Shown here: in pieces, positions 3,360-34,208 of the stretch
How positions within the stretch are numbered: position 1 is the stretch's first letter
Layout of the letters: each line of letters opens with the position of its first letter
Source of the DNA: Podarcis liolepis
Lineage: Eukaryota
Assembly: GCA_965112155.1 (NCBI GenBank)
Contig: OZ218099.1
Direction: 5' to 3' (one strand)
Length of the DNA stretch: 64,000 nt
Position numbers and translations under genes: made by a program
The notes under the pieces: generated by a model
The model's database searches: none
What the model was told of the DNA's origin: nothing
The model's input: only the letters and a program-made list of their open reading frames with translations

Positions 3360-4680
3360 AAGTAGGCCGTCCTGTCAGGGACGTCGCGAGCATGGAGGCG
3401 AGCCGCTGCTGCCTGAGGGCTTCGGTGCCGAGCGCTTCAGGTGCCCGCCGTTGCCGTTACACAAACGCAGCCTAAGAAGAGCGGGCGCCGTTTCCCCCTT
3501 ACGGCAGCGGCGGCCGGTGCTCGTCGTGTGAGGAAAAGTCCTCGTGGCCGGCCGGGCAGCCCTGCCGCCGCCGCCGCCTCCCTCTCTCCCTCCCTCCCAT
3601 CAGGCGCTCTTTCTCCCTCTCTCCCCGTCAGCCAGTCACTCCGCGCTTGAGCTGAGGCGCGGCGGCTGCGGCAGAGGAGCCGGCTGAGGCGCGCTCTCCC
3701 CCTTTCCCGCCTCCTTCTCCTTCCTCGCAGGCAGGCGAAAGGGGCTCGACTTGCCACCCGGCGGCGGCGGCGGCTTGGGCTCCCGAGCGTTGTTTGGCGC
3801 TGCCCGCCCGTCTGCCTTGCCTGCGGCGGCCATGACCTCGAGCGGCAGGCGGAGAGGCCGGGAGCGGGGAGAGCCTCACCAGCAGGAGGAGGATGAGGAG
3901 CTGCCCGTGTACCTGGCGCGCCCGGGCACCGCCGACCAAGTGCCCCGCCAGAAGTATGGCGGGATGTTCTGCAGCGTGGAGGGCGCCTTCGAGAGCAAGA
4001 CGCTGGACTTCGCGGCGCTCAGCGTTGGGCAGAGAGGGGCCCGGAGAGCCCCGTCGCGGCAGCAGGAGCCCCAGCAGCCCCCGCCGGAGCCCGACGCGCC
4101 CCCGGACGAAGCCCCAGCCCGCAGCGTCGAAATCCGGGCCCGCTCCGGCAAGGAGCGCCTGCAAAACCTCGACTACGAGGATTACAAGGTAAAGGGGGTG
4201 GGATGGGGAGTCCCTCAAGGGTCAGAGAGGAGGCAGGGGGACCGCGGAAAGGGGCGGGAGGTGTCGGTGGGTGGCATCTCTGAGATGGGAAACAAAAGAT
4301 GAGGCGATGAGGGCGAGGGAGATCCGCAGCCTGATCTGGAGGGGTGTGTAATGTGTGTGTTCGTGTCGACGGCTCTTTGTGGTGCCTGTTTACTCGCGAG
4401 TAAGGCGCCCCCGAATCGCAGCCTTCGGCAGTTGGACTGACACGAGACAAAACTACTTACTTCTGGGCTTGTGCGTGATCTGCCCTCTTGAGAAACGTCC
4501 GAAGCATCTTTCGAACATCTCGCCCTCGTCAAGCTGCGAAGCGGTTAAAATTCAACAGAAGTTAAAACAAAACGGCACGAATCCTACTTGGCCGTACATT
4601 TTTACGGCCTGTTCCGAAGTTGATGATGGCTGTTAAGACGGTTACTAAGAGAGAGAGAGGCCCCTAGCGCCCCCCCTTCC
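3360..4680 (+). promoter_or_regulatory. DPYSL3: CpG island / distal promoter of DPYSL3 long isoform
   Basis: Abrupt rise in GC and CpG density around the first coding exon, against AT-rich CpG-depleted flanks. Edges approximate. Confidence 0.9.
3832..4188 (+). CDS. DPYSL3: DPYSL3/CRMP4 long-isoform coding exon 1A (119 aa)
   Basis: gcggccATG start. MTSSGRR...LPVYLARPGTADQVPRQKYGGMFCSVEGAFESKTLDF...VEIRARSGKERLQNL matches the CRMP4 long N-terminus. Donor AAG|gtaaag, phase 0. Confidence 0.95.
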
Positions 4681-14392: not shown

Positions 14393-14479
14393 CTGAAGAA
14401 GTGTGCATGCACACAGAAGCTTATATCCAGAACAAACTTGGTTGGTCTCTAAGGTGCTACTGGACAATTTTTTTTATTT
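14393..14479 (+). mobile_element. Penelope-like mini-insertion with degenerate hammerhead motif
   Basis: ctgaagaagtgtgcatgcacacagaagcttat...taaggtgctactgga, flanked by aaatcctcct direct repeats (14385-14394, 14480-14489); paralogous to 18892-19016. Confidence 0.75.
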
Positions 14480-17400: not shown

Positions 17401-17613
17401 TCAGTTGCCTCAGTTGGTTTGTTTTATCCTTCTTTATAGCTGTTGAATTTACTTAGTTTTTGTTTATTGGAAGCTAAGGGTTCAGGCCTTCTTTTGGAGG
17501 TGGTGGTGGGAGGGAATGAACATGAACATGAACTAGAAGCTGTTCAATGTTCAGCCCCAAAATGAACTTAATTCTCCTTTAGATTACCCAGCAATTATGG
17601 AAACTACTTCCAG

Positions 17614-17705
17614 GCAGGGCTCTTTTTTTTCACCGGAACTCAGTTCCAGCACCTCTCAGGAGGCATTAATGGTGAGCCCCTCTTTTTCTAGAAAAATAGC
17701 ACAGC
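17614..17705. mobile_element. hAT-like MITE (deleted copy)
   Basis: cagggctcttttt...ctagaaaaatagcac; reverse-complement relative at about 27082-27213. Confidence 0.55.
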
Positions 17706-18888
17706 TTTCAGAGATGTTTGAACTGGTTCATTGAACTGAACTAGTTCATTCCAAACCCTGTTTATCATTGCCCCCACAAACTAGGCTTTGAACTGTGCTT
17801 TTTCAAGGCAAACAACACTGTTACAAGCAAAGTGTCACCTTTAAAAGCCTTCTTTTGTTTGAAAAGCTGCTTCAGGAAGGGACAGTTTAAGAGTTAGAAG
17901 AGTAAAGTACTCTCTGCACCTATCTTAATGTTTCCAAAGAACAACAAAACAGTTGCCTGAGTACCATTTCTGATCAAGAGCTTCATTAACTACAAAACCC
18001 AACATTTGGGATCCCCTCCAAATCTTTCGTTGGATTTTGTAGTCATTTTGTAGCTCTGCCCAAGCCAGTACTGTATTAGCACCCCAGAGTCTTTGGGCTA
18101 TATTAAGACAAGGTGTTTGAGATCCATTATGAAATTTGGACAACAGTGCATTGTAGGAGGATGGGGAGCGGGGCGGATAACATCAACCCTTTCCCTGCAT
18201 AGATTTCCCATTGAAAGTGCTCCCTAGCTGCCCCATAATAGGTGCTTGGGTGAAGGCATTTTACGCCAGAAAACAGTGCAGTAAGGAAGGGTTCTACCTT
18301 CCCATCCCCACAGTACCAAGGTCTTGATTAATTCAGAGGGAGGAAGAGAGAGTTGTTGCTTTAAAAAAATGAAAAGGTTGGGAGAACCAATCATGGATCT
18401 CAAACATATCTAATCTGGCCCACTGCTGCAGAAATTGGGTGAGGCTTATATCATATCATGCACATCAGGAAGTCATCAATGGTGTAAGGCTGATGCAGAG
18501 TATGCATACTGTTTCCAGTGTGATTTTTGGCCAAAGCAGCAAGACTTAAGCACTTTTCTTTAAAAAAAAGAAAGAAGAAAAGAGAGAGTCTTTACAAGGG
18601 TAAAAAAGAGATATGAAACAGGCCCAGAAAGGAATGCTGGCAGCACATCCCATACAGGATGAATGTAGGGAAAACCGTCAAGTGGAACAACTTCTAGCCT
18701 AGACTTGGCATGGAAGTTGATGTCTTGTGCAGTGAATCTGAGAAGTAAAAGCTTTTTCAAAAATGTCATTAAAAATGAATGTTTAAAAGAATAGAAAATG
18801 TGACTTGGCAACAAAGAAAGCAGAACCTCCCCTCACTTCCCAGAACTTACATGCAGCCTGCATGGTGTAGTTTGATGTAATGGTTAGT

Positions 18889-18926
18889 GTATCTGAAGAA
18901 GTGTGCATGCACACGAAAGCTCATAC
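18889..18926 (+). ncRNA. Minimal type I hammerhead ribozyme motif (Penelope-type)
   Basis: gtat-CTGAAGA-a-gtgtgc(at)gcacac-GAAA-gc-TC-atac: complete catalytic core, stem II, palindromic AGCT helix III, 4-bp stem I. Predicted cleavage after 18922. Confidence 0.7.
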
Positions 18927-19016
18927 CTAGAACTAACTTAGTTGGTCTTTAAGGTGCTACTGGAAGGAACTTTTTTATTTTATTTTGACTATGGCAGACC
19001 AACACGGCTACCTATC
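18892..19016 (+). mobile_element. Penelope-like mini-insertion (125 bp) with 16-bp TSD
   Basis: Flanked by perfect tgtaatggttagtgta repeats (18876-18891, 19017-19032). Ends taaggtgctactgga...cagaccaacacggctacc as in reptile Penelope pseudo-LTRs (recall). Confidence 0.8.
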
Positions 19017-21165
19017 TGTAATGGTTAGTGTAAGACTAGGACCTGGAAGACAAGGGTTCAAATCCTCACTCAGCCATGAAACTCATTGGATGACCTTGGA
19101 CGAGTCTTGGCCTAATCTACTTCACAGGGTAGTGAAGGGTTGTGAAGTAGATTAAATGAAGTAGGAGAATGTTTGGGTTGTGCCTCCCCACCCCACCCCT
19201 GTAGATGTCGTCATTAGCATCCAGCCTAGTGTTTGAAATTCCAGTGTGTGTATACTGTAAGCTCTTCAGGGTAGCCTGCCCTTTGCCCCAGCTACAGAAC
19301 AGATGTAGATGACCCAACCATCCTTACCCCAAGGCTTTATGAATGCTATGACCAATAGGAACAGGCCTTTCCATTGACCATTGACCAAACCAATGAGCTT
19401 TTTGGAAGACAGGGACATGCCTCTGGGATATGAGAACTAGGAAAGGTATAAATTTGAAGGCTGTTTTTTCTTACTACACTTGTCTATTGATTTATAAAAT
19501 CTGATCTCTTCTCGGGGCTAAGATGCAGAAAATGATTATTTGTTACAGAAGTTCCATGTCTTTCTGTGGAGATCCTGTACACTAGGAAATCCAAATATTT
19601 TTATTAAGGGGATTTAATGGAACCACTAGTATATGTGCATTGCAGAAATACTCAATTTTCATTAAATAATATGCTGCACAAGAGATAAAATTAACTTTGT
19701 GCTATTTCTGAACAGAAACTCTAGCCATAGGTAGTTCTGATTACTTGCTGTCTCTTTCGCTTTATATTTAACAATTATTTGCTGTGATCTTGCTGTGTTT
19801 GACAAACCCACCGCCTGCTCCAGCTCCAAGAGAGGAGGAAGGGAATTCCTTCTACTGTAATCCCCAGTCTCTAAGCATAAGCTGCTCCACTGAGCATTTT
19901 GATGGATGCCCTTGGCTCACTTTTAATCTTCAAACCAGTATTGGCTTTTCCATGGCATGCCAGGTGAGATGCATGCGAAAGAGGAGATCTGAGAGTGGAA
20001 CAAGAGTAGAAAGTGGGAAAGGTTAATGTAGCAGAAGGATGCAGGTTAATCAATATGCATAAAGACTCATACAAAAGGAAGCCCATGTTTGGGTCCACTT
20101 TATTCTCTAACTTCTCTGCATGAATTCTGAGGGTGGTGTAAATTGTTGAAACGTGAAAGTCCCTGGAGGTAAAAGTTCTTCATTGCATATTTATCAAAAC
20201 GAAAAATCACTGAGCAACAAGAGCTGTTATGTTACACAAGTCAGTCATTCAATCATTCGCTAGCTACTGTGGAATTACTGAATTTCCCGTCAGCCCAACT
20301 GGCAAATGTTTTTGTCTCTATTGAAAATAAGCATTTGTAAGGGTAAGTGTGAGCCATCCCTACTGGCATAGTCTGTTGGCTGACTTGGTAGGTGGTGAAC
20401 CCTAAAGCGGCTCTGTGGTCTGAGCACCCACAGTCCTGGACTCAAATCAAGGGGTTTGTGGTTAAAACCCTGGGTGCTTAGTGGGAATTCTAGAATGTGC
20501 CTTAGGATAGTTTGTTTCTTCCACAAGCTCTAGTAGCTGACTATACAATATTTCCCCTGCCCTCCCTTCAGCTTACAGAGCAGATATTTTGTACATATGT
20601 TCTGCAAATGGATGAGATTATCTCACCTCAGGTATGAAGCGCAATATCCACAAACCACATCAACAATCTTAGACCCCCTAACCACACTGTAAAACTTTTT
20701 AGAACAAAGAAAGTTTATATTCCAGAGGGCTTGATGATGAGAAACTTTTTGATTTTGCTTGTTTTGTGCCCCCCCCCCAGCTTTATGTATGTCAGTTACT
20801 TTTCACAAGCCCTGAAAGAAATGGATTTCCAAATAAAAACCTTTGAAAAAATATTGATCATTTTGACTAAAAAATTTTTAAAAATATGAAAATTCTTTTT
20901 AAAAAAGCGGGTGGGGGTGTTGTTCTAAAATAAAGTTAGGTATTGTAACCCTGTTGCACTTCTCCCTTTCCTGCACACACTATTTTCCGAACAACACCAA
21001 GATTTTAAAAATGGATAGGTTTTGAATTCCTTAGGGAGCACTTTCCAGTGAAATGGGGTTGAAATGGGTTAGGTTTTCAAGCTTGGTCTAAAACCATGAG
21101 AACAAGAAGATTACTTTGCAGGGGATGGTGGAAGAATCACTACAATATGAAAAATGATAAGGTAG

Positions 21166-22289: not shown

Positions 22290-22331
22290 ATGTCTGGTTA
22301 TCAGGGCAAGAAGAACATCCCCAGGATAACA
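22290..22331 (+). CDS. DPYSL3: DPYSL3 short-isoform coding exon 1B (MSGYQGKKNIPRIT)
   Basis: Canonical CRMP N-terminus; donor ACA|gtgagt; phase 0 joins exon 2 SDRLLIK. Confidence 0.95.

Positions 22332-34004: not shown

Positions 34005-34208
<204 letters not shown>

Follow-up and report, generated by a model that had tools for sequence, protein, structure and literature searches.

Minimal hammerhead ribozymes (min-HHR) were described by Cervera and de la Pena (2014, PMC4209133) in the pLTRs of metazoan Penelope-like elements (PLEs). According to the accessible part of that report, they are of type I with a 4-bp helix I, an unpaired base between positions 9 and 10.1, a G10.1-C11.1 pair and palindromic 15/16 positions, are present as thousands of solo copies and have also been reported in Neptune elements as well as in turtle and snakes. 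The single motif is given as inactive and dimers as having low activity (PMC4209133; review PMC6765202, likewise accessible in part). Neptune-clade EN+ PLEs, as outlined by Craig et al. (2021, PMC8557442), combine an RT, a CX2-5CxxC linker and, at the C-terminus, GIY-YIG with partial tandems, heavy 5' truncation, an inverted partner and a 30-40-nt tail, and the available sections give the linker for both the Neptune and the Nematis clade. The element PAc (Poseidon_Ac) of Anolis carolinensis carries a hammerhead at the pLTR/ORF junction, starts RT at two sites that frame the tail, and takes uncleaved RNA as template (Frangieh et al. 2024, PMC11167929). In the available excerpts of that paper, the PAc hammerhead is inactive without protein and needs the protein plus at least 172 nt of the ORF; RNA-seq revealed no ends at its cut. 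Ribozyme motifs in sense within an intron are known from CPEB3 and from T3H48 in zebrafish (PMC11856399, in excerpts), which are fast monomers, conserved or optimised. Finally, non-LTR retrozymes are defined, in the accessible part of a preprint (bioRxiv 10.64898/2026.07.22.740005), as tandem arrays of short units that each contain a hammerhead; retrozyme sequences are under-represented there in Xenopus introns, a finding that concerns tandem retrozymes and not orientation.

The window analysed here, a stretch of 64,000 nt of lizard DNA, contains a minimal type I hammerhead at 18889-18926 (+ strand). With a probability of about 85%, we consider it part of a recent, 125-bp truncated copy of an abundant Neptune-type PLE, which retains the element's own hammerhead and is likely inactive in the DPYSL3 intron where it resides. 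Read from the letters, helix I is formed by GTAT (18889-18892) with ATAC (18923-18926), giving 4 bp, followed by CTGAAGA (18893-18899), an extra A (18900), stem II (18901-18914), the GAAA box (18915-18918) and GC-T-C with the predicted cut site at 18922/18923. All core nucleotides of the PLE minimal hammerhead are intact (C3 U4 G5 A6 N G8 A9 / G12 A13 A14 A15.1 / U16.1 H17, with C at position 17); A18900 is the unpaired base between positions 9 and 10.1, and G18901-C18914 is the G10.1-C11.1 pair. Helix III is a palindromic AGCU (18918-18921), loopless and without a hairpin in cis. A preliminary description had claimed a complete core with an extra A after A9, a palindromic AGCU and a predicted cut after 18922, and the letters agree on each point. 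Its stem II of 6 bp with a 2-nt loop was not reproduced; in the fold, the perfect 14-nt palindrome forms 5 bp closed by a loop of 4 nt. The traits listed above for the min-HHR recur in this motif, whereas helix II is shorter (5 bp) and perfectly palindromic over 14 nt in comparison to the published min-HHR as far as described (PMC4209133), a description that names neither this lizard family nor the locus. A simple minimal-hammerhead scan found the motif once in the 64-kb window (both strands) and not at all in 20 shuffles. The proposed covariance-model check did not recover it: Rfam models yielded no hammerhead match at E<=10 within 17500-20500, the only match being a chance one to SNORD51 (E 7.9). 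The motif is shorter than canonical hammerheads.

Folding predictions depended strongly on the context chosen. Fold z-scores of the motif region were unremarkable (-0.83 to +1.04). Helices I and II together reached a probability of 0.73 in the narrowest context, compared to 0.04, 0.11, 0.52, 0.03 and 0.01 in five wider ones; the value of 0.73 was attained by only 5 of the 51 short and 2 of the 43 longer copies sampled elsewhere, so that in this context the present copy outperforms most others, although 41 of the 51 short copies were trapped by an inverted partner. A possible distal helix I, pairing 18882-18888 (partly host) with 18932-18938, appeared in the minimum-energy fold of 18876-18940 only, with a mean pair probability of 0.78 there and of 0.02-0.18 in three wider contexts. 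In the narrow fold model, the host contribution is an optional distal helix through bases 18882-18885, and most wider contexts lose it. The stem I extension suggested earlier (tag/cta) can be drawn, but it relies on a minority base at 18928 (2 of 94 sampled copies), and its mean pair probability varied with context between 0.03 and 0.43. For two copies, a modelled double hammerhead (-12.7 kcal/mol) was less stable than two monomers (-25.2 kcal/mol) or a stem-II-swapped dimer (-42.2 kcal/mol), all of these being rough energies of the core helices only, and the best modelled dimer left helix III unclosed. Besides AGCU, the element carries a perfect 14-nt palindrome (18901-18914) and an interrupted 13-nt one (18931-18943), for which duplexes between two molecules were predicted at -25.2 and -7.8 kcal/mol, respectively. 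By these models, the palindromes could pair two element RNAs.

The motif belongs to a large family. The 35-nt core (18892-18926) has 11,366 exact copies in the genome, compared to none for the reversed control. Ninety-four copies, fetched from the first 100 matches listed and all located within the initial 5.2 Mb of contig C1, were compared, and the longer ones run upstream into a pLTR and a C-terminus with GIY-YIG. An intact-looking tandem (L136, G000:C8:51194500-51204499) with a period of 3,019 nt contains an open frame of 921 aa, in which Pfam RVT_1 (E 3e-12) and GIY-YIG (E 3e-5) were both detected above cut-off and whose translation carries a CX4CX2C linker. A PDB search with the element protein gave no match. 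Around the RT-EN frame, the hammerhead recurs with the 3,019-nt period, i.e. in the pLTR of a PLE, and together with the core nucleotides this bears out the earlier proposal that the motif is a PLE hammerhead of the minimal type I, for which cleavage as a dimer was expected. The element has a single ORF with RT and C-terminal GIY-YIG and a linker of the CX2-5CxxC form before the EN, and its copies show partial tandems, an inverted 5'-truncated partner and an optional 30-40-nt tail. Linker, inverted partners and tail have been described as marks of Neptune-type PLEs (PMC8557442, in part), and by these sequence features the family is assigned to that type, an assignment in which Nematis is not formally separated. 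Head-to-head inverted partners accompany 61 of the 94 sampled cores, and such partners would form long hairpins in any transcript. In L136, the tandem and its inverted truncated partner are 100% identical to each other, and its hammerheads have U at position 17. This position is C in 91 of the 94 sampled copies reaching it, while T accounts for about a fifth to a third of the contig depth. A non-LTR retrozyme was ruled out, as a single copy with a target site duplication (TSD) is present and the unit has no direct repeat in 18700-19300 or elsewhere in the window. The motif is real and of a known kind, and the copy is an ordinary one among over 11,000 near-identical stubs.

The unambiguous insert comprises 125 bp (18892-19016, + strand) and represents the 5'-truncated end of the Neptune-type PLE with hammerhead, short leader and ORF start. 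Identity to the element extends over 18886-19021 when microhomologies of 6 nt on the left and 5 nt on the right are included, and this segment aligns to the intact L136 tandem unit at 92.6%, with gaps. The first in-frame ATG of the 921-aa frame maps to 18991-19021, so that this part holds the first codons of the ORF and constitutes the optional 30-40-nt tail; compared with 27 of the 39 tailed copies, the insert shows one substitution plus a short T-run duplication. The insert is flanked by a 16-bp direct repeat (18876-18891 and 19017-19032), the left TSD being host SINE sequence whose last 6 nt equal the 5' end of the element; the right TSD, in turn, opens with 5 nt equal to the element's 3' end. 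The older SINE split by the insert extends over 18853-19133 (+ strand, left edge approximate) with 40 relatives among the matches listed (78-90% identity), and contains what we take to be A/B boxes of tRNA type.

Sequencing runs were compared at the orthologous site. In organism B (run X3) and organism C (run X4), single contigs about 99% identical to the window lead up to 18891, where the letters from 19033 on follow directly; they are empty and carry one copy of the 16-mer, and thus the TSD is genuine. In run X1 (organism A), the contig passes from the flank into the element. Overall, two of the seven runs were empty, both from one study, and one was filled, the left flank being uncovered in X5, X13, X6 and X7. 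The direct repeat, the empty site and the SINE relatives agree with the 125-bp insert and perfect 16-bp TSD inside an older SINE that had been described before. The empty site in two close relatives marks the insertion as recent and speaks against a feature conserved in the host; the conservation at the orthologous site that would mark a host-exapted intronic ribozyme was not found in X3 and X4. This absence likewise separates the minimal motif, located in a recent repeat missing from close relatives, from the conserved or optimised CPEB3 and T3H48 ribozymes (PMC11856399, as far as accessible). Further downstream, a perfect 14-bp inverted repeat is present at 19113-19154, and runs X3, X5 and X13 lack 10 nt near 19126 which are present in X1 and the window.

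According to the preliminary description, stem I was completed by host target sequence. The three bases GTA are indeed formally inside the TSD and hence in the target; however, the element carries the same bases. GTA precedes the core in 87 of the 94 sampled copies and in 9,879 of the 11,366 exact core copies genome-wide, whereas the full 16 upstream nucleotides plus core are found in only 3,449. Because GTA is part of most genomic copies, stem I is encoded by the element, and the host bases match its 5' end by microhomology rather than specially completing the ribozyme. Similar overlaps were seen elsewhere: by rough automatic calls, 13 of 33 solo copies have a TSD of 10-15 nt, which overlaps with the 5' end of the element in 9 and with the 3' end in 10 of these 13.

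How such stubs arise was approached by mapping the ends of the copies. Samples were taken from the first 5.2 Mb of one contig, and the copies anchored downstream of the cut were the 100 matches listed. Of these 100, 39 start at -7 to -2 of the core with a peak at -5, 20 start at -1 to +27, i.e. inside the hammerhead, and 32 lie further than 30 nt upstream; the cut itself is the start of none, and three start within 3 nt of it. In the sample of 94, 51 copies stop within 10 nt of the core. The 5' ends pile up at -5 and -3, which is 31-33 nt below a TATA box (L031-L100, L139-L154), and the -7 to -2 peak was seen in 10 solo copies too. The motif TATATAG starts at -36 of the core, 31 nt above the peak, and about 31 nt is the usual distance between a TATA box and the transcription start. 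An extra G, of the kind that a cap might leave, was observed in 7 of 13 copies at -3 and in 6 of 20 at -5. At the other side, 40 of 94 copies have their 3' end directly in front of the first ATG and 36 of 94 at 27-38 nt inside the ORF, the two clusters being about 35 nt apart. In PAc, which belongs to the Poseidon clade, stem II is where the ORF begins, and reverse transcription is initiated 111-118 nt inside the ORF (PMC11167929, in the excerpts available), whereas in the lizard element the first ATG is located about 65 nt below the hammerhead and the ends lie just before this ATG or 27-38 nt into the ORF. TATA and Inr-like motifs were reported in rotifer pLTRs (PMC3846280) and pLTR-driven transcription in Drosophila (PMC2377424), both according to partial texts.

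The pile-up of ends, the distance to the TATA box and the internal RT starts known from PAc together argue for the stub being a cDNA which reaches from the tail back to the 5' end of an uncleaved mRNA; on sequence grounds we regard this as likely, with the start site deduced from the TATA distance and the ends. The element protein would nick the host SINE, and reverse transcription would begin inside the element's own RNA about 30 nt into the ORF, at the end of the tail. Approximately 130 nt would be copied back to the RNA 5' end, where transcription likely starts, 30-31 nt below the TATA box of the pLTR, and the cDNA end would be joined via the 6-nt microhomology, leaving the 16-bp duplication. 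The template was probably uncleaved RNA, and the ribozyme itself would serve the tandem transcript of the element, by dimer or protein-assisted cutting. As in PAc, two RT start sites appear to frame the tail. Alternatively, reverse transcription from the 3' pLTR of a long RNA might have stalled, folded back or switched template just past the hammerhead, thereby creating the sharp 5' end. The 41 of 51 short copies arranged head to head with an inverted partner and the 20 of 100 ends inside the hammerhead would fit this, and self-priming has been proposed for such junctions (PMC3846280, partial text). Nevertheless, the peak lies at the canonical TATA distance with the 10 solo copies included, and PAc shows internal initiation (PMC11167929, excerpts), so we consider a stall or fold-back rather unlikely. 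Two further candidates were rejected: a splice acceptor (AG at -6/-5) as cause of the sharp end, as the upstream bases of short copies contain no common exon, and cleaved RNA as template, as 0 of 100 ends are at the cut.

The start-site pile-up at -5 was not found described in our literature search, beyond whose coverage other papers, or figures in supplements, may hold it. The genomic ends agree, in vivo, with what had been modelled in vitro, namely that initiation is internal and the template uncleaved, and the end map extends this model from Poseidon to a Neptune-type element. The family thus has modest value for the open question of how Penelope-like elements copy themselves; its end map is the only part worth keeping, whereas the locus itself matters little.

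The insert is located in the gene DPYSL3/CRMP4, for which long and short isoforms are known (PMC7053045, in part). The first coding exon of the long isoform (3832-4188, + strand) lies in a CpG island, has a GT donor at 4189 and encodes 119 aa with 100% identity to the start of the 676-aa DPYSL3 isoform X2 of a Podarcis lizard; an atlas search with this exon gave no usable match. The short-isoform first coding exon (22290-22331, + strand) matches residues 2-15 of short CRMP chains in the PDB with weak E values of 0.02-0.14 (20-aa query), as expected for 14 residues. This short exon (MSGYQGKK...) encodes one residue more than the PDB CRMP chains, which match from residue 2. Both first exons end in GT donors and are in frame with the shared exon 2, which starts at 34119; for the exons at 39 and 41 kb, DPYSL3 chains are the best match. 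The insert therefore lies, as the preliminary description had it, in sense in the intron specific to the long isoform, between 3832-4188 and 22290-22331 on the same strand, with the long first exon 14.7 kb above it and the short ATG 3.3 kb further down; from the latter distance we infer that it is upstream of the short-isoform promoter. An older, diverged related copy (14393-14479, 85-86% identity) is present in the same intron and on the same strand, with an altered GAAA box and without the 5' strand of helix I. This was the only other related copy in the window, which holds no intact tandem partner for the hammerhead.

As helix III is not closed, no intact partner is at hand and the downstream ORF RNA needed by the anole protein is missing, a lone intronic stub would cut rarely or never, the activity data for this being borrowed from a schistosome motif and a Poseidon-clade element, i.e. 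from other families than the present one. Evidence against inactivity consists of the probability of 0.73 in the narrowest fold and of 0.52 in one wide context, and of the intact core with C17. Activity might also be provided in trans, in that, where the element is expressed, its RNA (as hammerhead partner, via the palindromes of AGCU and stem II) or its protein switches on intronic stubs like the present one. The family is young with intact tandems, three palindromes permit intermolecular pairing and the PAc hammerhead is protein-assisted (PMC11167929, excerpts); nevertheless, the stub with its approximately 31 nt of ORF ends at an RT start site and presumably lacks the downstream ORF RNA which PAc needs, helix III stays open even in the best dimer, dimer rates in vitro are low (PMC4209133, PMC6765202, as accessible) and no copy of the 100 sampled begins at the cut. 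Activation in trans is thus improbable in our view. We give an equally small chance to the broader proposal that thousands of sense intronic Neptune hammerheads are cleavable only with element RNA or protein, and that this copy, aided by the host distal helix, selectively lowers long CRMP4. If it were true, filled and empty alleles among close lizard relatives would represent a natural experiment on transposon-triggered pre-mRNA cutting, and a retrotransposon would have a new way of altering host isoforms, through stubs that cleave introns of the host on demand.

Least probable of all is that the intact motif cuts long-isoform DPYSL3 pre-mRNA, alone with the host distal helix or with the copy at 14.4 kb, and thereby lowers CRMP4L and not CRMP4S: the sense orientation between the two first exons, the intact core with its favourable narrow fold and the up to 20-fold lowering of mRNA by an engineered fast intronic hammerhead in zebrafish (PMC11856399, excerpts), which makes such a route possible in principle, are outweighed by the missing helix III in cis, fold probabilities of 0.01-0.11 in four of five wider contexts, the absence of the insert from two close relatives, the more than 11,000 identical cores in the genome and the silence of published monomers (PMC4209133, PMC11167929, in the parts available). 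A heterodimer with the 14.4-kb copy, which is 4.5 kb away and has a damaged core, was rejected for its negligible pairing energies (+0.2 and -2.2 kcal/mol).

Elsewhere in the window, the segment 54400-55000 is GC-rich and CpG-rich, carries open frames on each strand and what looks like an internal repeat, and is probably another repeat element.
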